Positions 1,393 through 11,855 are shown, counted from the stretch's first letter. The stretch is DNA of 11,855 nt from Candidatus Thorarchaeota archaeon (GCA_046758445.1 JBHIAE010000075.1:1-11855), one strand, 5' to 3'. Numbers and translations: made by a program. The notes: generated by a model not told the origin, from the letters alone.

Positions 1393-1558
1393 GATAACGA
1401 CTCGTGAGGCCATGGACTTAGTAATAAGCATTCGCAACTTGCGGTTCGTCGTTTCAAGCGGCCACATCTGCCTGGAACAATAGGGTCTGGGCAGGACTCG
1501 GAGCGAATCGGATTCTTTTTCATCCTCGAGTGTAATGTTGACTACAAGGTTGTCCGAT

Positions 1559-2755
1559 ATGAATCGAATATGGCGCATTGCTTCTGAAGAGGAAATACTC
1601 TCGGGCAGAACCACTGACATCTACTTCAAGAGAGCTGTAGACGTGCTCAAAGCAGAGGGCATCGACCCCATCGTCCACGCAGAGGTCACGGTCTCCGGAA
1701 TGCCTGAGGGCATGGATTGGGCCATCTTGGCTGGAGTCAATGATGCATTGAAACTCTTCGAAGATAAGAAAGTCGACGTCTTTGGACTGAGAGAGGGCAC
1801 CGTCTTCAGACCACGAGACCCGCTTGGGGTAAAAACTCCTGTCCTAGCAGTAGAAGGCCCGTACACAGAGTTTGCAACATTGGAAACTCCATTATTAGGG
1901 TTTCTTTGTCACACGTCAGGCATGGTGACCAAGACCGCATGTGTTCGGTTAGCCGCCGGTGACAAGACCCTCTTATCATTCGGAGTGCGTCGTACTCATC
2001 CAGCCATAGCGCCACAAGTTGGGTATGCGGCATATATTGGCGGATGTGATGGAATATCATCTATCCTGGCAGCCGAGATGCTGGGGATGGAGCCTTCTGG
2101 AACAATGCCTCATGCTCTGATCATCGTGGCTGGAGACCACGTAAGAGCGTGGCAAGCTTATGACAAGCATGTTCCAAAAGATGTCCCCAGAATTGCTCTG
2201 ACGGACACTTACTTGGACGAGGTCGTGGAATCAGTTCTCGCCGCTCAGAACATAGACAACCTCCAAGGCGTAAGACTGGATACCACGAGCAGCAGGCGAG
2301 GCGATTTCGTCAAGATTGTCCAAGAGGTAAGATGGGAGTTAGACCTCCAAGGATACCATGATGTGAGAATCTACGCAAGTGGGGGATTGAATCCAGAATC
2401 GATTCGAGAACTTCGAAGAGCGGGTGTTGACGGATTCGGTGTGGGTGGTGCCATCAGCAACTCACCTGCGATAGATTTCGCCATGGACATCGTATCCATG
2501 CAAGTTGACAAGACATGGACTTCATCTGCAAAGCGGGGGAAGTTCTCCGGAAGGAAGACGGTCTGGAGATGTACTGACTGTAATGAGATTCGAGTCACCC
2601 CTATCGGAAGAAAGAGTCCAAAATGCAGCTGTGGCAGCAAGATGGAAAAGGCCACCATTCAGCTGATTGAGAAAGGAACACAAGTGCACCAACCATTGGC
2701 TCCAAAAGGAATCAGGGACAAGGTGTTAGAACAGATTGCGAGGATAGAGAATTGA
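1559..2755 (+). CDS. pncB: Nicotinate phosphoribosyltransferase (archaeal type) with C-terminal Zn-ribbon
   Basis: Motifs TDIYF, SFGVRRTHP, GTMPH (phospho-His), DTY, GVRLDT, ASGGL, GFGVG, DFAMDIV and KRGKFSGRK. CTDC...CSC lies near the C-terminus. The start is probably the ATG at 1559 (MNRIW), with 1535 as the alternative. The gene is adjacent to a nicotinamidase-like gene. Confidence 0.93.
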   Translation: MNRIWRIASEEEILSGRTTDIYFKRAVDVLKAEGIDPIVHAEVTVSGMPEGMDWAILAGVNDALKLFEDKKVDVFGLREGTVFRPRDPLGVKTPVLAVEGPYTEFATLETPLLGFLCHTSGMVTKTACVRLAAGDKTLLSFGVRRTHPAIAPQVGYAAYIGGCDGISSILAAEMLGMEPSGTMPHALIIVAGDHVRAWQAYDKHVPKDVPRIALTDTYLDEVVESVLAAQNIDNLQGVRLDTTSSRRGDFVKIVQEVRWELDLQGYHDVRIYASGGLNPESIRELRRAGVDGFGVGGAISNSPAIDFAMDIVSMQVDKTWTSSAKRGKFSGRKTVWRCTDCNEIRVTPIGRKSPKCSCGSKMEKATIQLIEKGTQVHQPLAPKGIRDKVLEQIARIEN

Positions 2756-3321
2756 AGTTAGACAGACTTGAGGTAGATAAGACAGCCATCCTAGTGATAG
2801 ACATGCTTGTGGACTTTGTCGAGGATGATGGAGCACTAGTCGTATCAGACGCAAAGACGTTGGTTCCAATCCAGAAGAAGGTGCTTGATTTGGCCAGAGA
2901 GAGAAACGTAGCTGTGGTGTATCTTGCAGACAATCATATGCCAGACGATGAGGAGTTTAGAGTGTGGCCTAAGCACTCGGTGGCTGGGACTCGTGGTGCA
3001 CAGGTAATTGACGACCTATCGCCACGAGAGGGAGAAAAGGTCATTCCGAAGAGGAGATACTCAGGGTTCTTCGGGACGGATCTTGATCTTACACTGAGGG
3101 AATCAGGGATTGAGAATGTCGTCCTAATGGGAGTCCTAACAGACATCTGTGTGATGTACACATCTGCTGATGCCGCATCAAGAGGGTACAACGTATTTGT
3201 GGTGACAGATGCCACGGCAAGTACAGGGAAGGGCAACCACAAGTTTGCACTCAACCACATGAGAGATATCCAGACGGCAACTCTAGTCGATTCAAACCAG
3301 GTTCTCGAACAATTGCTCTAG
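2752..3321 (+). CDS. pncA: Nicotinamidase / isochorismatase-family cysteine hydrolase
   Basis: Catalytic triad Asp (IDMLVDF), Lys (KRRYSGF) and Cys (GVLTDICV). Metal ligands D-x-H (DNH) and WPKH. The TTG start overlaps the pncB stop (TTGA), and pncB context supports nicotinamidase activity. Confidence 0.85.
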   Translation: MKLDRLEVDKTAILVIDMLVDFVEDDGALVVSDAKTLVPIQKKVLDLARERNVAVVYLADNHMPDDEEFRVWPKHSVAGTRGAQVIDDLSPREGEKVIPKRRYSGFFGTDLDLTLRESGIENVVLMGVLTDICVMYTSADAASRGYNVFVVTDATASTGKGNHKFALNHMRDIQTATLVDSNQVLEQLL

Positions 3322-3451: not shown

Positions 3452-3799
3452 TTGGACCTTAGAACCAGACGTGAGGTTTGGAAAGACTCGCTCAGAGCAA
3501 TGAAGACCTCACTGGCCACCTCCTATGATATGAGTACGGCGGTTGATGAACAGAGGAGATTCCTGAATGCTTGGCAAGAGCAGGACCTGGAGTACATGGT
3601 TTTCTCTGATTATAGACGTAATGATGGTAGGAGAAGGCTTAGAGACGTCATGGAAGTGATTGACACAGCTCTTGAGAGGATTGATAGCTGTGACACTTCG
3701 ACAGCGTCCCAGCTCTACCTTGATACGTTGAAGACTGTAGCACTATTCTCCAAGTGGGCAAGGGTTCTCGAAACATCTGCTTCTTGGTTCAGCTCCTAG
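3452..3799 (+). CDS. Hypothetical protein, 115 aa, predicted all-alpha
   Basis: The ORF fills the gap between pncA and the convergent DUF35 gene. It has an AGGAG SD before the TTG and amphipathic helical patterning. No family motif was recognised. Confidence 0.75.
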   Translation: MDLRTRREVWKDSLRAMKTSLATSYDMSTAVDEQRRFLNAWQEQDLEYMVFSDYRRNDGRRRLRDVMEVIDTALERIDSCDTSTASQLYLDTLKTVALFSKWARVLETSASWFSS

Positions 3800-3837: not shown

Positions 3838-4254
3838 CTATACAAGCCACCTGTAAGTAATCTTCTTCTCATCTATGTGGTCGAATCCCAGCTTGAGAGT
3901 CATTCCAACCTCAGGCATGCCCATTAGGTTTGTAATGTGTGCCGTGAGCCTCAAGCCCGATGGGAACTCCCCGATGGCCACCACATATGGGGCCTTTGAG
4001 GATAGGCTCTCAGGCGCAAAGTCCACGACTACAAACGAAACTAACTTGGCTTCAGTTTCTGTAAACTCTTTGAACTCGGTCAGACTAAGGCATTTCTGAC
4101 AGTGCTGTCTTGGAGGAAGGAACTCAGCACTGCACGATGTGCAGACACTCTTCATTACTTTCTCCTGATCGAGGTAGCCGAGCCACTCGGAATACCAAGG
4201 TGTTATGGCCTTGTCCGTTGCGTATCCGAGATAGAGTTCTTTCTTCTCCGTCAC
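3838..4254 (-). CDS. DUF35-family Zn-ribbon + OB-fold acyl-CoA-binding protein (thiolase partner)
   Basis: Zn-ribbon CTSC...PPRQHCQKC followed by an OB-fold (APYVVAIGE...GLRLTAHI...EVGM). The GTG start overlaps the thiolase stop (TAGTG). Confidence 0.92.
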   Translation of the reverse strand: MTEKKELYLGYATDKAITPWYSEWLGYLDQEKVMKSVCTSCSAEFLPPRQHCQKCLSLTEFKEFTETEAKLVSFVVVDFAPESLSSKAPYVVAIGEFPSGLRLTAHITNLMGMPEVGMTLKLGFDHIDEKKITYRWLV

Positions 4255-5426
4255 TAGAATCCCCTCTCGAAGATGAAGACGTTGACGAACTGGCCACTCT
4301 GACCGACATTGTGGGCTAAGCCATATTGAACGTCCTTGATTTGACGAGATGAGTTCTCAGCCTCGCCTCGCATCTGTTTGAGTATCTCATATGTCATGGA
4401 AATTCCGGTTGCGCCAAGGGGATGACCCTTGCTCTTCAGACCGCCATCACAATTTACGGGGATTCGTCCGTCATGGTAGTTGTCCTTGTTTTCAACAATC
4501 TCAGGGCCCTTGCCTGGTTCGGCAAAGCCTAGGTCCTCGTAGGCGACCAACTCAGCAATGCTGAAACAGTCGTGTACCTGGGCCATGTTGACGTCATCTG
4601 GTCCTATGCCAGCCATCTCGTAGGCAGCCTTGCCCGCTCTCCTTGCCCCATGTATCGAGGTAAGGCTTGTACGGTCCTGAATCATCATCTCAGAGGCCCC
4701 GGCACCGATGCCTTTGATCCACATCGGCCTGTCGGTGAACTCCTTCACTCGGTCTTCAGCCGCAATTACAACAGCTGCAGCGCCATCAGTGATCAGGCTG
4801 CAATCGTATAGATTGAGCGGCCGTGCGATTGGCACAGCATTGTTAGCCTCCTCAAGTGATACCTCCTTTGGCAGGTGGGCTTTCGGATTCTGTGCACCGT
4901 AGTGGTGGGATTTCACCGAGATCTTAGATAGCACTTCATGTTCCATATTGTAGTCAGCCATGTAACGCGATGCCATCAACGCATAGAAAGCGGGGAAGCT
5001 AATTCCAAACGGATACTCCCAACGCATGTCGCCTGCTTGAGACATGTACTCAGTTGCGGTGGCTGAAGAAACCCTGTTCATCTGCTCGACACCGAGTACA
5101 AGCATTACATCATAGAGACCAGCGGAAACGAGACCCCATGCAGCCCTTAGAGAGGCAGTTCCTGTTGTGCATGCCGACTCTACACGCATGTGAGGCTTGT
5201 CCTGGAGGCCGAGGTAGTCAGCTATGAGCGCGGATCCTGCGCCTTGGCCAGAGAACTGTGATGCAGCATACGAGAGAACGGATGCATCAATCTTGTCCTG
5301 AGTAATACCCTCATCATAGATGGGCTTGTATGCCTCAGCACACAGCTCTCTCATGGTCGCATCGTATCGTTTTCCGAACTTGCTATGGCCGCCAGCTACG
5401 ACAGCTACTTTTCTTCCCAATTTCAT
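4254..5426 (-). CDS. Thiolase, SCP2-thiolase/archaeal type (acetyl-CoA C-acyltransferase)
   Basis: Motifs VESACTTG (nucleophilic Cys), DGAAA, VHDCF, GGLKSKGHPLGATG and the C-terminal HNVG. The start is the ATG at 5426 or the TTG at 5420 (GGAGG lies 8 nt before the TTG). The 5480 start in the ORF track is probably too long. Confidence 0.95.
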   Translation of the reverse strand: MKLGRKVAVVAGGHSKFGKRYDATMRELCAEAYKPIYDEGITQDKIDASVLSYAASQFSGQGAGSALIADYLGLQDKPHMRVESACTTGTASLRAAWGLVSAGLYDVMLVLGVEQMNRVSSATATEYMSQAGDMRWEYPFGISFPAFYALMASRYMADYNMEHEVLSKISVKSHHYGAQNPKAHLPKEVSLEEANNAVPIARPLNLYDCSLITDGAAAVVIAAEDRVKEFTDRPMWIKGIGAGASEMMIQDRTSLTSIHGARRAGKAAYEMAGIGPDDVNMAQVHDCFSIAELVAYEDLGFAEPGKGPEIVENKDNYHDGRIPVNCDGGLKSKGHPLGATGISMTYEILKQMRGEAENSSRQIKDVQYGLAHNVGQSGQFVNVFIFERGF

Positions 5427-5590
5427 TTCCTCCGTGGACGGAACCCACTCGATGTGTTTCAAGCAGGTTCTGACATTCACGTTACTATACTAGCGGAATC
5501 ACCGGTAACGTGGTCTTAAGGTTGACGATTAGTGGAGCAATCGATTCTTGAGGCATTATCTTATTGATTGTGGCAATCTAGACTGAAGCG

Positions 5591-5624
5591 AAAAAGAAGA
5601 GAAAGACCCCGGTGAGCCGGGGTC
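5591..5624 (-). terminator. Hairpin + U-tract terminator downstream of the second enoyl-CoA hydratase
   Basis: Perfect 8-bp stem GACCCCGG-N4-CCGGGGTC (5605-5624), followed on the minus strand by TTTCTCTTCTTTTT. It begins 15 nt after the stop at 5640. Confidence 0.8.
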
Positions 5625-5639
5625 AGAGCAGGATTCAAA

Positions 5640-6452
5640 CTACTCGCCAGTGAACTTGCCACGGCGTTTCTCAAGGACTGCAGATATCCCTTCAGCAAGG
5701 TCCTTTGTTTTGAAGCACTCGACTAAGGCTTTCACCTGATACTTGAGGTTATCTTTGTACTCTTCCTCGAACGCCATGTGAGTCGCTTTCTTCGCCAACC
5801 TCACTGCAACAGGAGCATTGCCACCAAGCTTTGCACCATACCACATCGCTTGACTCAGAAGTTCATCCTTTTTGACGACTTTACTGACAAGTCCCATGTC
5901 GAATGCTTCTTGGGCAGTGACCTGGCCCCCGGTGAGTATGAGTTCCATAGCTTTCCCAAGACCCACGATTCTTGGAAGTCTGACACAGCCACCCCAGCCT
6001 GGAATGAGTCCAAGACTTACCTCTGGAACCCCAATCTTTGCTTCATCTTCAGCTATTCTTATGTCACAGGCAAGTGCAATCTCTAGACCTCCAGCAAGAC
6101 ATAGACCATTGATCGCTGCAATAGTCGGCTTTGGGAAATCTGCCAGCTTGTTGATTATTCCCTGGCCTTCCTGAATAATACCTTCAACTTGATCGATGTC
6201 ATCGAGGAGTGACTGAGCCATCTTCAGATCTGCACCTGAACTGTATACCTTATCATGTGCTGACGCAAGCACCACCGATCGGACTTCTTTATCTTTCTCG
6301 GCCTCGTCCAGGGCATCACTGAGGTCTTGAAGAAACTGAGCGCTGATTGCGTTCAGAGCATCAAGTCGATTGAACTTAATTAGGGCCGTGTTCTTCACAG
6401 GTGAAAGAAAAGACCCTTCCTTACTGTATAGCATCGTTTCGTACTCTGGCAT
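5640..6452 (-). CDS. Enoyl-CoA hydratase/isomerase (crotonase family), about 270 aa
   Basis: Motifs FNRLDALNAI, YSSGADL, CLAGGLEIALACD and GVPEVSLG, so both catalytic Glu are present. C-terminus is EKRRGKFTGE. The ATG at 6452 (MPEYET) is preceded by AGGTG. Confidence 0.95.
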   Translation of the reverse strand: MPEYETMLYSKEGSFLSPVKNTALIKFNRLDALNAISAQFLQDLSDALDEAEKDKEVRSVVLASAHDKVYSSGADLKMAQSLLDDIDQVEGIIQEGQGIINKLADFPKPTIAAINGLCLAGGLEIALACDIRIAEDEAKIGVPEVSLGLIPGWGGCVRLPRIVGLGKAMELILTGGQVTAQEAFDMGLVSKVVKKDELLSQAMWYGAKLGGNAPVAVRLAKKATHMAFEEEYKDNLKYQVKALVECFKTKDLAEGISAVLEKRRGKFTGE

Positions 6453-6509
6453 TCCATGCACCTTTTGTTATACTATGCTTCAGAATGGAATATGTGCTGC
6501 TTAAAAATC

Positions 6510-6517: not shown

Positions 6518-6565
6518 AACGAATTGGGAATCTGGGAGTACCAAGTCCACAAAACATCGGAAGGA

Positions 6566-6604
6566 ACAAAATGAAAGAGGTAAGCAGGGCCTGACGCCCT
6601 GCTT
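6566..6604 (-). terminator. Hairpin + U-rich terminator after the 3-hydroxyacyl-CoA dehydrogenase
   Basis: Perfect 9-bp stem AAGCAGGGC-N5-GCCCTGCTT (6582-6604), 14 nt after the stop. It is followed on the minus strand by ACCTCTTTCATTTTGT. Confidence 0.7.
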
Positions 6605-6618
6605 CTTGTCATATTTGA

Positions 6619-7743
6619 TTACTTCAGCATCTTTGGAACGCTGTAACACTCGCCAAACTCCTCTTCGAGCTTTGAGATGTGTTCGCGGATCTTGTTCATC
6701 CCATACTTGTCTGCCATTTCGAACGGCCCGGCAGGCCAAGCCGCGCCCAGTTTCATGGCCATGTCAATGTCCTCTTTGTTTGCAATTCCGTCATCGACGA
6801 GAATCATAGCCTCCCGAATTCCAGCAATCTGAATCCTCTCTGCGATCCAATTCGGATCGGCACCCTTTGGTTCCTCAGGTTCTGCTTTGTCGGGCCCATA
6901 CTCATAGAAACCCTTCTTTGATTTCATTCCGATGGCACCAGAATCAACGAGATTCTTCAGCGTTTCAGGGGGTTTGAAGCAATCACCAATCTCTCGGTAG
7001 AGAGTAGACATGGCGTTGAAGGCTATGTCAAGACCCACAAAGTCACCCAAAGCGAATGGACCCATGGCGGCCTTCCCAATGCCAACCATTGCTGTGTCAA
7101 TCTCCTCCTTGGTGGCCTCTCCACGTTCGTACATTAGGAGCGACTCTCGCATGCCTGGCATGAGAAGACGATTGACAATAAAGCCGGGGCTGTTCTTGGC
7201 CAACACAGTGAGCTTGCCCTGCTTCTCACCAACTGCCTTGGCAACTGCAATCGTATCATCACTGGTCTTATCGCCGATTACAATCTCAAGGAGCTTCATG
7301 GCCGGAACTGGAGAGAAATAGTGCATACCAATGAACTTGTCAGGCCGGTTGGTGGCTGTTGCAAGTTCATCTATGCTTAGCGATGAAGTGTTGGAAGCCA
7401 GTATTGCGTGCGCCGGTGCGGCAGCATCGATCTTGGCGAACACCTCCTTCTTGACCTCCATGTTCTCGAATATGGCCTCAATCACAAGATCGGCGTCCTT
7501 GACTGCTTCCTCGGTGTCAACAGTGCCGTTGACTCTGCCCATTAGGCCTTCTGCATCCGTGATAGACATCTTCCCCTTGTCAATGCCAGTCATTACATCA
7601 TTTCGGATTCTCTCAATGCCCTTGTCCACTAACTCTTGATTGATGTCTACCATGGTGACTTCGTATCCATTCCACGCAGAAACGTAGGCGATGCCCGAAC
7701 CCATCAAACCAGAACCAATTACTGCGATCTTATTGATGCCCAT
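6619..7743 (-). CDS. 3-hydroxyacyl-CoA dehydrogenase with a duplicated C-terminal dimerisation domain, 374 aa
   Basis: Rossmann motif GSGLMGSGIA, then IEAIFE, ASNTSSLSI, the catalytic GMHYFSP...LLE and PGFIVNR. Two copies of the C-domain: EIDTAM...MGPFALGD and EDIDMAMKLGAAWPAGPFEMAD. SD is GGAGG. Confidence 0.95.
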   Translation of the reverse strand: MGINKIAVIGSGLMGSGIAYVSAWNGYEVTMVDINQELVDKGIERIRNDVMTGIDKGKMSITDAEGLMGRVNGTVDTEEAVKDADLVIEAIFENMEVKKEVFAKIDAAAPAHAILASNTSSLSIDELATATNRPDKFIGMHYFSPVPAMKLLEIVIGDKTSDDTIAVAKAVGEKQGKLTVLAKNSPGFIVNRLLMPGMRESLLMYERGEATKEEIDTAMVGIGKAAMGPFALGDFVGLDIAFNAMSTLYREIGDCFKPPETLKNLVDSGAIGMKSKKGFYEYGPDKAEPEEPKGADPNWIAERIQIAGIREAMILVDDGIANKEDIDMAMKLGAAWPAGPFEMADKYGMNKIREHISKLEEEFGECYSVPKMLK

Positions 7744-7754
7744 TTCAGACCCTC

Positions 7755-8117
7755 CTACATCGCACCCATAAGTGCTGCAAGAATGAGATTCGCCAGAGGA
7801 TCGCTCTCGTGGGCGTTACCTATGACCTCGAGACGGCCGTCTTTCATCGTGTCCTTGAAAGGCACCTCTCCAGTGAAGATTCCCAGAAGCGTTTCTGAAC
7901 TGGCCTTATAGATACAGTCTGGACTTGGGTAGATACCATCATGAATGGTCATGTCGTCCTTCGTGATTACCATGTATTGGGGACCTGCCTCAGTATAGAC
8001 CTGCAGAACCTTACCGTCATAAGGTCCGACCCAGTCCTCCAGCATCTTTCTGATGTCTTCCTTCTCCCTCACCTTAGCTATCAGGAACTTGAAGAACTCA
8101 TCAAGTTGTGTAGACAT
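7755..8117 (-). CDS. Stand-alone SCP2 (sterol carrier protein 2) domain lipid/acyl-CoA-binding protein, about 120 aa
   Basis: SCP2 C-terminal signature PDCIYKAS...LLGIFTGEVPFKDTMKDGRLEVIGN. The ATG at 8117 follows GGAGGAG (alternative GTG at 8126). Confidence 0.8.
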   Translation of the reverse strand: MSTQLDEFFKFLIAKVREKEDIRKMLEDWVGPYDGKVLQVYTEAGPQYMVITKDDMTIHDGIYPSPDCIYKASSETLLGIFTGEVPFKDTMKDGRLEVIGNAHESDPLANLILAALMGAM

Positions 8118-8122
8118 ACCAT

Positions 8123-8395
8123 TCACTCCTCCTTCGCCATCCAGTCATCGATGGCCTCCTGCATTGCTGATTCGATGGAAACTGTCCAAATGTTGCCTTT
8201 CCTCTCCTTGACTTTGTCAAGGAATTCGTCATACCGGTCTCCCCCCATCAGGACAACAATTCGACCTTTTCGGTCATCAATGAACGCCTGATGATACATC
8301 TTCTTGGACGTCCAATACTCATGTTCGATGTCGCCTTCTTTCAGTCGAGGGTAGAAGGGCCACTCACCGGTCGGATGCTTTCTGAATTTTGCCAA
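8123..8395 (-). CDS. Hypothetical 90-aa protein with a C-terminal ribbon-helix-helix-like domain
   Basis: TTG start with GGAGGT (8404-8409) 8 nt upstream, tightly packed in the operon. Residues 45-86 read strand (RIVVLM), helix (DRYDEFLDKVKERKG), helix (SIESAMQEAIDDWM), as in archaeal CopG/MetJ-like RHH proteins. This is pattern recognition only. Confidence 0.7.
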   Translation of the reverse strand: MAKFRKHPTGEWPFYPRLKEGDIEHEYWTSKKMYHQAFIDDRKGRIVVLMGGDRYDEFLDKVKERKGNIWTVSIESAMQEAIDDWMAKEE

Positions 8396-8659
8396 CTAAC
8401 TCAACCTCCATTTCTTGACGATGTCCCCCGTTGCCTCGAAGAAGCCTGGTCTGAACGGCCATTGACACACATAGCGGAATCCTTTGACCCCGTCTTTTTC
8501 ACCGCCTGACCATCGTCCAGTGTAGACTCTTGCACCCGTGTTGTGCACAAACTGCATGATCACACACTCGACAAAACCTTCAGGCTTCAGGTTCGCTTCG
8601 TCAGCCAATTCCTTGATCTTCTCAAGGGTTTCTTTGTTGAAATCTACTTCCAAGATCAT
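8396..8659 (-). CDS. Hypothetical 87-aa protein with an N-terminal ribbon-helix-helix-like domain
   Basis: The ATG at 8659 overlaps the nitroreductase stop (TGATG), so the 8701 start is unlikely. Residues 1-38 read strand (ILEVDF), helix (KETLEKIKELADEAN), helix (PEGFVECVIMQFV). Confidence 0.7.
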   Translation of the reverse strand: MILEVDFNKETLEKIKELADEANLKPEGFVECVIMQFVHNTGARVYTGRWSGGEKDGVKGFRYVCQWPFRPGFFEATGDIVKKWRLS

Positions 8660-9420
8660 CACCCCTTCCTGAAGGCCAAGCGCTTGTATGGCTTCCCCCA
8701 TCGTTCCTCGTACATCAGACCCTCCAAAGGTGGTCTGCTAGGTCCGAGAACACGTGGCGATATTCTCTTTCCAATACAGAACGCAGTCAAGGGCGTCCAA
8801 GTTGGCGGGATTCCCAATCTGTCACGAATCAACATTGCATGTCGCGGGTCCGAACAGACTAGAGCCTCATATCCGCAGCCATATCCTAGTTCTGTGGCAG
8901 TAAGCCACATGTTCTGAACGGCCATACCGGCCACTACTGACCCGAACAGTTCGTTCGGATACTGGTAACCCGCATCGTGCCACATTTCGCTTGCACAGAC
9001 GATAATCACGGCATCGCTCTTTTCGGGGTATCGGAAGAGCTCTCCATCCCTCAGCCTCGCGTACACAGCAGCTCGATATGGGTCGCTGATGAACCAGTTC
9101 CTGCCGCTTGTGAGCTCAAACGGAGCCCCGCCAAACGCAGTCTGGGCCATCTCCTGTGCAATGTCGGCCAGGAACACTTTCATGTCCTCATCATCCCTGA
9201 TTACAATGAAACGTATCATGAGCATGTTCTCCGGGCTCGGTGCATGTCGAGCCGCCTCCAGAATCATCTCAATGTGATCGTCAGGCAGCTTCTCGCCAGT
9301 GAATTCGCGGATGGACCGCCTATCTCGGATGAGCTGCAGAGACTGTAACTCCTCCGTAGTCTTGGCGACATCCTCGGTTTCCTCAGCAGCCTTCGACTTG
9401 CCATTAGCATCTGTTGCCAT
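8659..9420 (-). CDS. Nitroreductase-superfamily FMN-dependent oxidoreductase, 253 aa
   Basis: FMN-binding motifs IRDRRSIREF and ILEAARHAPS..N, then AGMAVQNMWLTATELGYG, LGIP...IG and SRPPLE. A strong GAGGTGA SD is present. Confidence 0.92.
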   Translation of the reverse strand: MATDANGKSKAAEETEDVAKTTEELQSLQLIRDRRSIREFTGEKLPDDHIEMILEAARHAPSPENMLMIRFIVIRDDEDMKVFLADIAQEMAQTAFGGAPFELTSGRNWFISDPYRAAVYARLRDGELFRYPEKSDAVIIVCASEMWHDAGYQYPNELFGSVVAGMAVQNMWLTATELGYGCGYEALVCSDPRHAMLIRDRLGIPPTWTPLTAFCIGKRISPRVLGPSRPPLEGLMYEERWGKPYKRLAFRKG

Positions 9421-9431: not shown

Positions 9432-9474
9432 ATGGTTGTTGTTTAACGCGGGAGTCGCAAACAACACGAGCCAT
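9432..9474. repeat. Imperfect inverted repeat abutting the nitroreductase SD
   Basis: ATGG..TGTTGTTT(9437-9444)..GCG-N5-CGC-AAACAACA(9459-9466)..CCAT. Confidence 0.7.
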
Positions 9475-9721
9475 AAATGTATTCGCTTTCGCATAGAGAG
9501 TCGGCACTTCGTCTAAGCTGTTAGAATGAAACATTGTATCTCTGGGAGGCCAGAGGTTCCGGCAGAGTGATGGACTATATACCACCGCATCTTGTCTAGA
9601 GAACATCCTCAATACTAGCCCAATATTGGCATGAATACACAAGCTGACTTATTCCTGCCTGCCCGAAACACAGATTGGAGTGCATCGCAATCTCCCGGTG
9701 GATGATGTGCTCCGTTCTTTC

Positions 9722-9779: not shown

Positions 9780-10844
9780 TCACGGATCGAAGCCGGTAAG
9801 GTCGATTGCCTTTCCCACAATGTTCTGGACTGTTGCCACTCTCTTCTTGTTCTCAGGTGTCACGGTGCCTACCAGACTATCCACCTTTTGTGCTGTTGTG
9901 TAGGTATCGTGGGCAGTCATCATGATTGGGACCCCCAGGTCTTTTGCCCTAGAGAGCGTGCGAATATCAGGACCCATTCCACCGGTCAGGATCAGTAGAT
10001 TCGTGTCTGTTTCGAGGGCAGCTACGCAAATGTCAGACCGATCACCGCTCGTTATTACTGCCTTGTCCTTTGCACGTCTGAACCACTTCAAGGCATTCTC
10101 GGGAGCCATGCTGCCGACCATGAATCTATCAACGAGAAGATCCATTTGATCCTCTCCACTAATCATCTCTCCATTGAGAGCCTTGAGAATGTCCTTGACG
10201 GTCGGACTAAAGAGTTCTCTTCTCTGATAGACTACGCCTAGGAACTTGAGTCCACTGTCTTCAAAGAATGGTCTAATATGCTTCTCCACGGTAGTCTTTA
10301 GCATAGGGGGAACCATGTTCAATATCAGACCTATCTCCTCGATGCCGTGTTGCATGAAGAAATCTCTCTGTAGGAACACCTCATCTATAGCAGTGATATC
10401 AGGAAAGTTGACTAGACAGATGACCGAAGCGTCAAGCATCTTGGCAATCTGAGGAGTCGAGAGTTCGACATGAAGAAGATGCCAAGGTGCTCTCGCACCT
10501 TCTATTACAACGTAGTCATTGCCTTCTGCCACCTTGGCATAGCATTGTTGTATCCTCCCAATCAAAGCGTCGCGTCCGACGCGTATTAACTCGTCATAGC
10601 TTGATTTGGTTCTGACAATGGGACATATGCAGGATACCTCGGCATCTAGGCCAAGCACCTCCTTCATGACCGCCGCGTCTTCATCCACGTCAAGCGACTC
10701 CCTGCTATGCTCAAAGCTCTTGAAGCCAACTGGTTTGAAGTAGCCAACTTTGTGCCCCTTCTTCTGCAACTTGGCTGCAATTGCCAATGCTGCCATGGTC
10801 TTGCCTGAGAGAGTTCCTCCGCTGATCACGATATTCTTAGTCAT
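9780..10844 (-). CDS. Phosphotransacetylase N-terminal-like protein (BioD-like P-loop + DRTGG domain, no catalytic Pta domain), about 354 aa
   Basis: P-loop GGTLSGKT, VGYFKPVG and VVIEGA. The DRTGG domain shows VGSM, VITSGDRSD, LILTGG and HDTY. The ATG at 10844 (MTKNIV) lies 1 nt after the upstream stop and follows GGAGGAG, so the 10937 start is too long. Confidence 0.88.
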   Translation of the reverse strand: MTKNIVISGGTLSGKTMAALAIAAKLQKKGHKVGYFKPVGFKSFEHSRESLDVDEDAAVMKEVLGLDAEVSCICPIVRTKSSYDELIRVGRDALIGRIQQCYAKVAEGNDYVVIEGARAPWHLLHVELSTPQIAKMLDASVICLVNFPDITAIDEVFLQRDFFMQHGIEEIGLILNMVPPMLKTTVEKHIRPFFEDSGLKFLGVVYQRRELFSPTVKDILKALNGEMISGEDQMDLLVDRFMVGSMAPENALKWFRRAKDKAVITSGDRSDICVAALETDTNLLILTGGMGPDIRTLSRAKDLGVPIMMTAHDTYTTAQKVDSLVGTVTPENKKRVATVQNIVGKAIDLTGFDP

Positions 10845-10845
10845 C

Positions 10846-11855
10846 CTACTCTCCTCCAATTGTAATCTTAACATCCACCGCAGACACGCCTTTTCCCCTA
10901 ACATAAGCGAATGCCGGGTTGATATCCAACTCAACAATCTCCTCGAAGTCAGTGACTAGTTGAGAGATCCTCAATATGGTTTCCTCTATAGCCGCAATGT
11001 CACTTGGCTCCTCTCCTCTTACGCCTCCGAGGATGGTCCCCATCTTTGTTTCTCCAATCAGCTCTGATGCGTTTCTTCGAGTCATCGGTGCAAGGCGGAA
11101 AGCCACGTCTTTCACGTAGTTGACGAATATTCCGCCGGCACCGAACATTACCAGCGGTCCAAATTGAATGTCACGAGAGCATCCGATTATGAGCTCCTTG
11201 CCTTTCTCAACCATCTCTTGTACATCGACGCCGTAGATCACAGCCCTAGGCACATGTGTACGTACACTATCAAGAATCTGGAGAAACGCATCTTCTACTT
11301 CTTCTGAATTCTTCAGACCCAAGTGAATACCACCAATGTCGGTCTTGTGCACGATGGCCGGACTCGAGATCTTGAGTACTACAGGATAGCCAAGCTCGTC
11401 TGCGATCTTCTTCGCTTCCTCGGTACTCGTAGCCAGACCTATACGGGCGACAGGAATACCGTATGCCTCCGCGATCTGGTGAGCCTCACTCCCCAGGAGA
11501 ACACGACGTTCGTCGCTTCTCACTCCTTGGATGATTTTCTCAATCCTCTTACGGTCGACCTTGAATCTAGGTGGTTTCTCATCCTTCAGGGAGTCCCTCA
11601 ACACCATGTATCGATATAGCTCTGCGATGGCATTCACTGCACGTCCAGGGAAGTCGAATACAGGGATTCCACCCTCGTTGAGCACCTTTCGGGGATTGGT
11701 CATGGAGTGACCTCCCATGAACACTGCAAGAAGTGGTTTGTGGGGGTACTTTTTGTGTGATTCTACCAGTATCTGTGCAGTCTCGTCTTCCTTCGTCATA
11801 GCTTGAGGAGTCAGTAGCACGAGAAGACTGTCGACATTTTCATCACTTAACGCCG
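10846..11855 (-). CDS. ADP-forming acetyl/acyl-CoA synthetase (fused alpha-beta ACD), C-terminal part; 5'-truncated by the window edge
   Basis: The frame is open to the window end (ALSDENVDSLLVLLTPQ). The ligase-like flavodoxin domain (KPLLAVFMGG, GIPVFDFP) is followed by an ATP-grasp (GYPVVLKISSP, IVHKTDIGG with the conserved His, VQEM, ELIIG..RD.QFGPLVMFGAGG, ELDINP). There is no C-terminal GNAT domain. Confidence 0.92.
   Translation of the reverse strand, partial: ALSDENVDSLLVLLTPQAMTKEDETAQILVESHKKYPHKPLLAVFMGGHSMTNPRKVLNEGGIPVFDFPGRAVNAIAELYRYMVLRDSLKDEKPPRFKVDRKRIEKIIQGVRSDERRVLLGSEAHQIAEAYGIPVARIGLATSTEEAKKIADELGYPVVLKISSPAIVHKTDIGGIHLGLKNSEEVEDAFLQILDSVRTHVPRAVIYGVDVQEMVEKGKELIIGCSRDIQFGPLVMFGAGGIFVNYVKDVAFRLAPMTRRNASELIGETKMGTILGGVRGEEPSDIAAIEETILRISQLVTDFEEIVELDINPAFAYVRGKGVSAVDVKITIGGE

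Follow-up and report, generated by a model that had tools for sequence, protein, structure and literature searches.

A contig of a Candidatus Thorarchaeota archaeon, analysed here as a window of 11,855 nucleotides, carries a gene for a nitroreductase-fold flavoprotein packed against genes for two small proteins, an SCP2-like protein and a 3-hydroxyacyl-CoA dehydrogenase. The question raised by this locus is whether these genes form an undescribed operon in which the flavoprotein, assisted by its small neighbours, acts on a C=C bond of an acyl-CoA or lipid, perhaps in place of an acyl-CoA dehydrogenase (ACAD).

Organisation of the locus

Reading of the sequence together with domain searches confirmed all five open reading frames on the minus strand. 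The first encodes the nitroreductase-fold FMN protein (NTR; 8659..9420, 253 aa), the TGA of which overlaps by 1 nt the ATG of small protein A (8396..8659, 87 aa). Small protein B (8123..8395, 90 aa) starts at a TTG that abuts the TAG of A (0 nt) in frame, and is followed by the SCP2-like lipid-binding protein (SCP2; 7755..8117), which has 120 aa and a 5-nt gap from B if read from the ATG at 8117, or 123 aa and a 4-nt overlap if read from the GTG at 8126; SCP2 homologues begin MS.QL, which bears on the choice of the ATG. The 3-hydroxyacyl-CoA dehydrogenase (HBD; 6619..7743, 374 aa) lies 11 nt further on. With GGAGG-like (SD-like) sites before all five starts, the close packing set out in the preliminary description stands at every junction; the NTR/A/B/SCP2 junctions (-1, 0 and 5 nt) are translationally coupled, and the five genes probably form one transcript.

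The domain assignments of the last two genes are straightforward. SCP2 matches PF02036 at 24.6 bits (gathering cutoff 21.3, E 3.3e-5), as do 13 of 15 orthologues from other cassettes (best E 1.7e-9), and its alignment shows conserved W.G.Y.GK and G.YPSPD motifs. HBD matches 3HCDH_N (E 2e-64) and 3HCDH_C (E about 2e-40; 2.2e-40), the latter in two C-terminal stretches, and scores 355 bits against NF004474, which is under the subfamily cutoff of 408. Pfam matches identify the flanking genes, also on the minus strand: an enoyl-CoA hydratase (5640-6461), an SCPx-type thiolase (4254-5480) and a DUF35/ChsH2 OB-fold partner (3838-4254) form a downstream block (3838..6461), while the beta part of an ADP-forming acyl-CoA synthetase (ATP-grasp_5) and an AAA_26+DRTGG protein lie upstream (9780..11853).

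The 360 bp ahead of NTR had been taken for a leader. However, a BRE/TATA-like block (GAAAGCGAATACATTTATG; 9472..9490, minus strand), which is conserved when 17 Thorarchaeota upstream regions are aligned, lies ~50-55 nt from the NTR ATG, so that the 5' UTR is probably ~25 nt long and the 360 bp are a spacer; an Rfam search of the window matched no family. The terminator proposed at the other end is plausible: 3' of the HBD stop is a hairpin (AGCAGGGC-GTCAG-GCCCTGCT, 6603-6583) with an 8-bp GC-rich stem and a 5-nt loop, which with its T-rich tail (6563..6603, minus strand) probably terminates or attenuates transcription. Its folding energy is -24.4 kcal/mol (z = -5.05), none of 200 shuffles folding as well, and it was not called by a bacterial-type terminator scanner.

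Conservation across Asgard archaea

At every one of the 39 distinct A-B loci examined, NTR, A, B and SCP2 lie side by side in the same orientation. These loci come from several Asgard lineages (20 loci, 8 contexts, 2 further and 9 new loci; L066 was counted out as a duplicate of L043/L044), and NTR identity among them falls to ~46%. The synteny on which the preliminary description asked to be judged is therefore strongly conserved, and the conserved unit is NTR-A-B-SCP2, an undescribed cassette so far seen in Asgard archaea only. Of the five-gene operon originally put forward, the first four genes are kept together, whereas HBD lies outside the conserved unit, though it recurs downstream. It follows the cassette directly in the Thorarchaeota loci, at Hodarchaeales locus L050, at L051/L052 and in family f18 (L062), all of which show the full order NTR-A-B-SCP2-HBD-hydratase-thiolase-DUF35. 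In Hodarchaeales L047/L048 there is no free-standing SCP2 gene, the SCP2 domain being fused instead to a neighbouring ACAD.

Acyl-CoA genes adjoin the cassette in other arrangements as well. Acyl-CoA synthetase and AAA_26+DRTGG genes lie upstream in most Thorarchaeota loci, CoA ligases or CoA-transferases are neighbours in Helarchaeota and at L053, L056 and L065, the Hodarchaeales ACAD::SCP2 fusion is directly upstream of NTR-A::B, and ACADs are found within ~3-4 kb in family f12 and ~3-9 kb in f13. The cassette is thus usually beside fatty-acyl-CoA genes, a link that recurs in several independent Asgard lineages. It is also separable from beta-oxidation genes: in Jordarchaeaceae it follows cobalamin-salvage genes (CobD/CbiB, CbiZ, CobS, CobY-like), in family f7 it lies beside Trp genes (with an upstream AAA_26-like gene that matches weakly, E 1.7e-4, below the Pfam cutoff), and in Freyarchaeota and at L049 its surroundings contain no acyl-CoA genes. 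The earlier proposal that the flavoprotein is tied to acyl-CoA chemistry gains from the recurrent neighbourhood, but is weakened by these cobalamin and unrelated contexts.

Given such contexts, the cassette might serve detoxification or quinone/nitro reduction in a generic way, or do something unrelated, and tend to lie near acyl-CoA genes where these are abundant. Asgard genomes are rich in them (5-12 matches to ACAD and 5-13 to 3HCDH_N in each), so that chance alone should place some of them nearby, and about one third of the non-Thorarchaeota contexts show none. Yet acyl-CoA genes occur within 7 kb in about 14 of the 20 non-Thorarchaeota contexts, against a chance expectation of ~1/4 that is a rough estimate and was not computed. 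Furthermore, the HBD-hydratase-thiolase-DUF35 genes are joined to the cassette co-directionally and with tight spacing in at least four lineages whose NTR proteins share 51-65% identity, and the SCP2 component suggests a hydrophobic ligand. We regard a generic unit as improbable.

The nitroreductase-fold protein

NTR matches PF00881 with 84.8 bits (cutoff 23.5, E 1e-23) over the whole family model, positions 1-167 of 167, and its AF2 model (pLDDT 84.8, pTM 0.80) finds 194 PDB matches by Foldseek at E <= 0.001, all of the top matches listed being NTR-fold entries. R34, R35, S36 and R38 of the conserved RRSIR motif, the RRSxR motif that binds the FMN phosphate, are invariant or nearly so in the clade, which is further marked by a large helical insertion at about residues 85-135 and a distinctive C-terminal tail (WG.PYKRLAFR). 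All named homologues are from Asgard archaea. In these comparisons NTR forms an Asgard-only subfamily, with uncharacterised Geobacter nitroreductases, the FbiB C-terminal domain and BluB as its nearest solved relatives. Placement within the superfamily, a check suggested at the outset, sets NTR apart from NfsA/NfsB-type nitroreductases, which we rejected as an assignment: scores against the NCBIfam models are far under the equivalog cutoffs (46.2 bits against 223 for NfsA model NF008033, over the N-terminus only; 16.9 against 183 for NF008088).

The best named NCBIfam matches are instead BluB (2.7e-15) and FbiB_C (6.1e-13). These are also the nearest characterised structures, the FbiB C-terminal domain being the best Foldseek match (E 3.8e-12, TM 0.59-0.73, 23-24% identity), followed by BluB and Geobacter 4dn2. 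NTR might accordingly work in cofactor biosynthesis, as a BluB-like enzyme supplying the lower ligand of cobalamin or as a stand-alone archaeal dehydro-F420-0 reductase like FbiB_C. The position of the Jordarchaeaceae cassette behind cobalamin-salvage genes would suit the former, although it is a context seen in one lineage only. As BluB, however, NTR scores 56.3 bits against a cutoff of 150 (TIGR02476), and in the alignment to 2isj the nearly invariant Ser36 of RRSIR stands opposite the Asp of BluB RRDVR, which we take to be the catalytic Asp32. As FbiB_C it scores 49 bits against 249.55 (TIGR03553). The genome, which is 92.7% complete, yielded no CobS and no CofD, and its CofE-like genes are not adjacent to the cassette. 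We rejected both assignments, and a role in cofactor synthesis, largely disfavoured by these data, is very improbable, even though the archaeal dehydro-F420-0 reductase is still unidentified (PMC6450877). The chemistry of the FbiB C-terminal domain is of interest in its own right, since with FMNH2 this domain saturates a C=C adjacent to a carboxylate (PMC6450877); unlike FbiB, NTR is not fused to CofE and carries the insertion and tail described above.

The closest functional precedent for the role that we propose for NTR is CLA-ER of Lactobacillus plantarum (PDB 4qlx), an enone reductase of the nitroreductase family. Together with a hydratase and a dehydrogenase, it hydrogenates a carbonyl-conjugated C=C of a fatty acid (PMC13365329). 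It is distant from NTR (E 9e-8, over an N-terminal stretch only), acts on free fatty acids rather than CoA esters, and has no RHH or SCP2 partners.

The small proteins A and B

A second precedent, raised in the preliminary description, is cyclodipeptide oxidase, in which AlbB is the obligatory small partner of AlbA and completes the active site for alpha,beta C-C dehydrogenation (PMC11055893). The cassette resembles this system in coupling an NTR-fold FMN protein to an overlapping small-partner gene (by 1 nt at the NTR/A junction), and the NTR profile matches AlbA (8uc3) at E 2e-18. The suggested likeness of the small partners to AlbB was not borne out: AlbB is a four-helix protein (PF19585), whereas A and B are two RHH-like proteins, and none of the 39 A/B family members matches PF19585, even at E <= 1. 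We therefore rejected the cassette as a cyclodipeptide oxidase of the CDO-A plus CDO-B type, from which it differs also in its fixed fourth member, SCP2, and in a context of acyl-CoA rather than CDPS genes.

A and B belong to no Pfam or NCBIfam family, and their own family comprises only 29 clusters among 1.84 billion representatives. A consists of an N-terminal RHH-like strand-helix-helix followed by a beta-hairpin and a QWPF.PG motif, while B has an N-terminal EWP(F/G)YP.L motif, a conserved RKGR and then a C-terminal RHH-like domain. A profile of A (A1, positions 3-42) weakly matches CopG (E 0.006), ORF56 (E 0.026) and ParG (E 0.89). Residues 126-175 of an A::B model match NikR, AmrZ, TacA, Arc and others by VIA-align (Z 4.0-4.7; rmsd 1.6-2.5 A over 43-49 residues, the whole small domain), and ranges 1-77 and 1-90 match Arc/HicB clusters in the Atlas, where TM by target for A::B is 0.61-0.79 across RHH, Arc and CopG clusters and an RHH_6 cluster (0.79, for the B part). 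These matches, which are consistent but weak, suggest that A and B are each RHH-like. RHH domains work as dimers. B always adjoins A, and the two are naturally fused as one 175-aa ORF in a subset of Thorarchaeota (L031-L035) and as one 166-177-aa ORF of 30% identity in Hodarchaeales L047/L048; because each is RHH-like and fusions have arisen in two lineages, A and B probably pair with each other. In the AF2 model of A::B (pTM 0.43), however, the halves are not packed together, a point against the complex proposed below.

Since the partners are RHH-like and not AlbB-like, their modelled fold is that of DNA-binding regulators, which opens the possibility that A:B may be an RHH transcription factor, a heterodimer or in the fused cases a single chain, autoregulating the cassette together with linked acyl-CoA genes and perhaps sensing acyl-CoA or redox state through the segments bearing the WPF motifs, while NTR and SCP2 are ordinary stand-alone proteins forming no enzyme complex. 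The matches at both ends of the A::B model, the basic RKGR conserved just ahead of the B ribbon strand and the fit of the natural fusions to dimeric action all point this way. On the other hand, A and B match no Pfam RHH family, and unlike CopG, Arc, NikR, ParG and the antitoxins, with which they share the strand-helix-helix and a dimeric logic, they form an obligate hetero-pair with mirror-image extra segments. The outward-facing ribbon of A is often acidic (E/D at position 2 in 9/17, position 4 in 6/20 and position 6 in 10/20), and the combined A::B pI is near-neutral or acidic. The inverted repeat GTTGTTT-N14-AAACAAC (9438..9465, unstranded), between the TATA block and the SD site, is unique in the window and has two strict copies in the genome, where no regulon-like repeat was seen; among the 17 aligned loci only L041 and L042, which are the closest relatives, share it, with mismatches, so it does not qualify as a conserved operator. 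In addition, the pair is locked between NTR and SCP2 by coupled junctions, fixed inside an enzyme cassette while the flanks change completely, which would be unexpected for a regulator of those flanks. A regulatory role is unlikely, though it is the chief alternative.

The acyl-CoA dehydrogenase step

A Pfam search found no ACAD in the window, as the preliminary description had observed, but the argument that a step is missing fails. The host genome encodes six ACADs plus EtfAB, and five other cassette-bearing genomes have 5-12 ACAD matches each, so there is no missing beta-oxidation step; other HBD-hydratase-thiolase-DUF35 operons were seen that have no cassette and no ACAD beside them. Because ACAD and EtfAB are present separately in the genome, the cassette is an addition to, and not a substitute for, a Bcd/AcrC-type ACAD with EtfAB. 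The latter is the classical catalyst of the enoyl-CoA/acyl-CoA interconversion absent from the operon itself; its fold is unrelated to that of NTR and it uses FAD, and it adjoins NTR or an NTR paralogue in several lineages, a proximity that is awkward for a simple model in which NTR replaces ACAD.

This adjacency could indicate that NTR is an NAD(P)H:flavin/acceptor oxidoreductase that serves its neighbours without acting on the acyl chain, exchanging electrons between NAD(P)H and a Bcd-like ACAD as a non-bifurcating surrogate for ETF, or recycling NADH/NAD+ for HBD. Besides the Hodarchaeales ACAD::SCP2-NTR arrangement, an NTR paralogue (34% identity) lies directly downstream of a Bcd/AcrC-like ACAD, by thiolase-DUF35, at all nine Thorarchaeota loci fetched (nine genera), an arrangement that counts equally towards the acyl-CoA context of the favoured reading. 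The model that gives these ACADs their highest score is that of the acryloyl-CoA reductase AcrC. Genome G020 has a further NTR copy (L034) that directly precedes an HBD paralogue and is without A, B or SCP2, and PDB titles show many nitroreductase-family enzymes to be NAD(P)H-flavin reductases. Nitroreductases, however, transfer electrons strictly in pairs, and their usual acceptors are free flavins or small molecules rather than protein-bound FAD. EtfAB is already present, acyl-CoA oxidation to NAD+ is thermodynamically uphill, and SCP2 and A/B would be left without a role. Electron shuttling by NTR is therefore quite unlikely.

A proposed function for the cassette

We favour, at somewhat less than an even chance, the reading that NTR-A-B-SCP2 is an acyl-CoA- or lipid-linked FMN C=C oxidoreductase module, a self-contained four-gene unit that in Thorarchaeota would be transcribed with HBD from its own BRE/TATA promoter just upstream of the hydratase/thiolase/DUF35 genes. 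Gene order, conservation, the A::B fusions, the folds and the acyl-CoA neighbourhood are observed; substrate, direction and physical association may be as follows. In a two-electron step, a dimeric FMN NTR would donate a hydride to, or accept one from, a C=C in conjugation with a carbonyl or thioester. NAD(P)H-driven reduction of an enoyl-CoA or dienoyl-CoA would be the most probable reaction, acyl-CoA dehydrogenation being less likely. SCP2 would hold the hydrophobic chain. A and B would form one RHH-type heterodimer, sitting on the NTR dimer as an adaptor or as a cap over the active site, functionally akin to AlbB of cyclodipeptide oxidase though unrelated to it in fold. In Helarchaeota two NTR copies are fused in tandem; the halves have diverged to 46% and 30% identity and one of them has lost its RRS motif, an asymmetry that would fit an asymmetric A:B partner.

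In its most specific form, which we consider doubtful, the proposal is that NTR2-A:B-SCP2 is a multi-subunit NTR-fold flavoenzyme, an enoyl-CoA/dienoyl-CoA reductase or acyl-CoA dehydrogenase independent of ACAD and ETF. Its RHH heterodimer would serve not to bind DNA but as a recruited structural or catalytic subunit, and the acyl chain would be presented by an SCP2 of its own. If this were true, Asgard archaea alone would possess this previously unrecognised kind of flavoenzyme, which would complete their operons for beta-oxidation or reverse beta-oxidation.

Gene organisation of the locus

The window spans an entire contig (C75, 11,855 bp), whose minus strand carries five consecutive ORFs in head-to-tail order: a nitroreductase-fold protein, here NTR (9420–8659, 253 aa; Nitroreductase by Pfam), two small ribbon-helix-helix-like (RHH-like) proteins, A (8659–8396, 87 aa) and B (8395–8123, 90 aa, TTG start), neither of which matches any Pfam family, an SCP2 protein (8117–7755, or from a GTG at 8126; SCP2 by Pfam) and a 3-hydroxyacyl-CoA dehydrogenase, HBD (7743–6619, 374 aa; 3HCDH_N/C by Pfam). 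The close packing reported in the preliminary description is borne out by the window sequence, with junctions of -1, 0, 5 and 11 nt, as are the Shine-Dalgarno-like sites, a GGAGG-like site preceding every one of the five starts, and the hairpin after HBD, which combines 8 GC-rich base pairs with a T-rich tail (-24.4 kcal/mol, z = -5). Pfam matches identify an enoyl-CoA hydratase, an SCPx-type thiolase and its DUF35/ChsH2 OB-fold partner 3' of HBD on the same strand, and the beta part of an ADP-forming acyl-CoA synthetase (ACS-beta) together with an AAA_26+DRTGG protein upstream of NTR. Read as its longest ORF, the DRTGG gene overlaps ACS-beta by 92 nt (window 10842–10848); its likely true start is an ATG at 10844 (MTKNIVISGG), 1 nt past the ACS-beta stop, and these two genes are therefore also tightly coupled.

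Two further features were noted on the plus strand. A 115-aa ORF without a Pfam family (3452–3799) adjoins the DUF35 gene and has similarly placed homologues (41–82% identity) in other Thorarchaeota loci. A pair of ORFs with a 4-nt overlap (1535–3321), located between two beta-oxidation gene blocks and kept in some relatives (loci L031 and L035), is nicotinate-phosphoribosyltransferase-like and isochorismatase/nicotinamidase-like on reading of the translations, and may serve NAD salvage.

The 360-bp gap upstream of NTR had been described as a leader, but alignment of 17 Thorarchaeota upstream regions revealed instead one conserved block close to the start codon, GAAAGCGAATACATTTATG, approximately 50–55 nt before the NTR ATG. 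This block looks like an archaeal BRE/TATA element, and transcription probably starts about 25 nt upstream of the NTR start codon. A riboswitch or leader RNA in the gap was rejected, given this conserved TATA-like block and the lack of any Rfam match in the window at E <= 1. An inverted repeat between the TATA and the Shine-Dalgarno site (9438–9465) is present in a single copy in the window; it was discarded as a conserved operator, since among the 17 aligned loci it occurs only in the closest relatives (L041/L042), with mismatches, and we found no regulon-like recurrence of it in the genome.

Conservation and distribution of the cassette

The conserved unit is not five genes but four, NTR-A-B-SCP2 (hereafter the cassette). 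NTR adjoins the A-B pair at all 39 distinct A-B loci examined, so that the synteny of the proposed operon holds for this part. When A and B were searched in 41 related genomes both were found, adjacent every time, and the order NTR-A-B-SCP2 was present in 20/20 loci fetched, including those of the distant genome families f7 and f12 (NTR identity 52–55%). In the protein collection and further genomes the quartet turned up in Jordarchaeaceae and Freyarchaeota, Hodarchaeales (two types), three metagenomic lineages, Helarchaeota and families f8, f13, f16, f18 and f19. The sole departure involving SCP2 among the 39 loci is in one Hodarchaeales type, which has no stand-alone gene and carries an SCP2 domain fused to the adjacent acyl-CoA dehydrogenase (ACAD). 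The relationship of this domain to the cassette SCP2 is only remote (hhalign probability 57%, nothing by BLASTP), and orthology of the two is therefore unsupported; no fusion of a cassette SCP2 to a larger protein was found.

Of 201 Asgard genomes searched with a profile of A plus B, 77 were positive for the pair, including 47/48 Thorarchaeota, with 0/24, 1/45 and 0/12 genomes positive in several large Asgard families. Against 1.84 billion representative proteins, the form in which A and B are fused in a single ORF (A::B) recovered only 29 clusters, none exceeding 175 aa, the few named ones being from Freyarchaeota or Jordarchaeaceae. Among named NTR homologues the closest are from Thorarchaeota or Promethearchaeota and the farther ones from Hodarchaeales, Freyarchaeota and Jordarchaeaceae; the window is accordingly assigned to an Asgard archaeon. 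The Asgard-only range is defined by these named homologues, the 201-genome Asgard survey, and the A::B clusters and their names; A and B are so far orphan proteins, found nowhere else. Full-text literature searches returned no paper describing the cassette. One Thorarchaeota relative (G020, L034:15007–16499) encodes a second cassette-type NTR (72% identical), and the next gene is an HBD paralogue (55%), without intervening A, B or SCP2.

Proteins A and B

Each small protein contains a predicted strand-helix-helix segment, at the N-terminus of A and the C-terminus of B, and an aromatic-proline motif (QWPF.PG in A, EWP(G/F)YP.L in B). A family profile gave weak matches to CopG (E 0.006) and ORF56 (E 0.026) for the N-terminus of A and to ParG (E 0.89) for the C-terminus of B. 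In the window A and B share a frame and are split by a single TAG followed directly by the TTG start (8393–8398); relatives with a sense codon at the TAG position encode a single 175-aa protein, while in other loci the two differ in frame or are plainly distinct genes. Verified fusions are confined to a subset of Thorarchaeota (one 175-aa ORF, L031–L035) and Hodarchaeales (166–177 aa, just 30% identity). Single long read-through matches had pointed to fusions in f12 and f18 as well, but ORF calling gave separate genes.

In the AF2 model of a natural A::B fusion (pLDDT 81, pTM 0.43), residues 126–175 match almost exclusively RHH domains by VIA-align (NikR, AmrZ, TacA, VapB, MazE, RelB, Arc and ParG; Z 4.0–4.7, rmsd 1.6–2.5 Å over the whole 43–49-residue domain), and Atlas shape searches with both ends of the fusion returned RHH_6, Arc, CopG and HicB clusters. 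Foldseek comparison of the whole model with the PDB gave nothing at E <= 0.001, only noise, and leads from an ESM Atlas feature search were all below 0.9. RHH domains function as dimers, and an A:B heterodimer is therefore the natural reading. The earlier comparison of the small partners with AlbB was not upheld, as neither matches the AlbB/CDO-B family, and no PADLOC defence family was matched.

The RHH-like fold also raises the chief rival to an enzymatic role, namely that A:B is an unusual heterodimeric RHH regulator. DNA binding is favoured by the basic RKGR that B retains just before its strand; against it stand the frequent acidic residues at outward-facing ribbon positions of A and the pI of 5.6–6.9 of the fused proteins.

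Relationships of the nitroreductase

The FMN-binding motif RRSIR and many further positions are invariant in the NTR clade, which also has a helical insertion (approximately residues 85–135) and a signature C-terminal tail, WG.PYKR(L/I)AFR. NTR is not of the NfsA/NfsB type (NfsA score 46 vs cutoff 223) and also falls far below the cutoffs for BluB (56 vs 150) and FbiB_C (49 vs 249.55). Its best solved relatives by profile are two uncharacterised Geobacter nitroreductases (E ~1e-30), followed by BluB (7e-22) and AlbA (2e-18), with CLA-ER distant (9e-8); fold comparison ranks the FbiB C-terminal domain first (E 3.8e-12), with 4dn2, 3e39, BluB and many others close. At the Asp of the BluB RRD motif, NTR carries Ser. 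Searches of the window's source genome (3.25 Mb, 92.7% complete) recovered no CobS and no CofD, hence cofactor-biosynthesis readings of NTR are weak for this organism, despite a cobalamin context in Jordarchaeaceae. There (L043/L044:1–7593) the cassette lies downstream of same-strand cobalamin salvage/assembly genes (BtuCD-like ABC transporter, aminotransferase, CobD/CbiB, CbiZ, CobS and nucleotidyltransferase) and is followed by a Fae/OMP-decarboxylase-like fusion gene. The window's genome, in which CofD was not found, has three or four CofE-like F420_ligase (PF01996) genes (contig positions C87:6621–7271, C23:21125–21769, C60:3–527 and C5:3–170).

NTR was not found joined to A, B or SCP2 in one protein, the sole longer forms being tandem NTR-NTR proteins. 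In Helarchaeota (P0150–P0153, 473–489 aa; genes at L054:7001–8470 and 10649–12091, and L056:7001–8449) the halves have diverged (46% and 30% identity), and P0153 has lost the RRS FMN motif in its first half, which would give a built-in asymmetric dimer beside the asymmetric A/B pair. In one locus, two such tandem genes accompany a pair of family-III CoA-transferases and an NMO-type flavoprotein.

Association with acyl-CoA genes

The series NTR-A-B-SCP2-HBD-hydratase-thiolase-DUF35 is found again, complete and in this order, in Hodarchaeales (65% NTR identity), a second non-Thorarchaeota lineage (L051/L052, 55%) and family f18 (51%), and in Thorarchaeota an HBD orthologue adjoins the cassette at every locus with both positions listed. 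In the second Hodarchaeales type the ACAD::SCP2 gene is immediately upstream of NTR-A::B, ACADs and thiolases occur within approximately 3–9 kb of the cassette in families f12 and f13, and in Helarchaeota and others the cassette lies amid CoA ligases, family-III CoA-transferases, an SDR and an NMO-type flavoprotein. Around one third of non-Thorarchaeota cassette contexts contain no acyl-CoA genes, and family f25 has similar HBD-hydratase-thiolase-DUF35 operons without the cassette and with nothing in its place. These patterns best fit a self-contained module, joined to acyl-CoA pathways in several Asgard lineages. The cassette as replacement for a missing ACAD was rejected at the genome level: the window's genome encodes six ACADs and EtfAB, and five further cassette-bearing genomes have 5–12 ACAD matches each.

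The same genome encodes an NTR paralogue (34% identical) directly 3' of a Bcd/AcrC-like ACAD and beside a thiolase-DUF35 pair (C57:11224–16895, loci L003/L008; also L067–L076), and this arrangement is kept in 9/9 Thorarchaeota loci fetched, from nine genera. A third option for the cassette NTR itself is that it acts as redox partner of the neighbouring ACAD or HBD. In the paralogue cluster, which is shared by all nine of these loci and partly present in f12, thiolase-DUF35 is divergent from the ACAD, the paralogue, a 182-aa orphan protein and a gene resembling isopropylmalate synthase. In the ESM Atlas this orphan is similar to DUF6125/ATC_hydrolase-fold proteins (TM ~0.65), and it is unrelated to A, B or SCP2.

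Proposed function and significance

Precedents within the nitroreductase fold include FbiB-C, which reduces a C=C bond with FMNH2 (PMC6450877), CLA-ER, which hydrogenates fatty-acid enones together with a hydratase and a dehydrogenase (PMC13365329), and AlbA, which needs a small partner as the source of its catalytic base (PMC11055893). Because of these precedents we favour a reading in which NTR would be an FMN-dependent ene-reductase or dehydrogenase acting on enoyl-/acyl-CoA or an SCP2-held lipid, with A:B as adaptor or cap rather than DNA binder. The reductive direction would better suit nitroreductase chemistry, and would also fit the neighbouring acyl-CoA synthetase, an ADP-forming, ATP-yielding enzyme. 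With four genes in ~1.7 kb, the cassette is compact and within reach of expression in standard hosts.

No known prokaryotes are more closely related to eukaryotes than the Asgard archaea, and the way they process fatty acids is relevant both to how eukaryotic lipid metabolism arose and to the "lipid divide". With its SCP2, SCPx-type thiolase and DUF35, hydratase and dehydrogenase, the operon recalls the SCP2-decorated pathway of peroxisomes, with a flavoprotein and two orphan proteins in addition. As an enzyme, the cassette would represent a new way to the C2–C3 redox step and a rare use of the RHH fold outside DNA binding; should A:B instead be a regulator, it would count as an unusual RHH factor formed by an obligate heterodimer, which some lineages make as a single chain.
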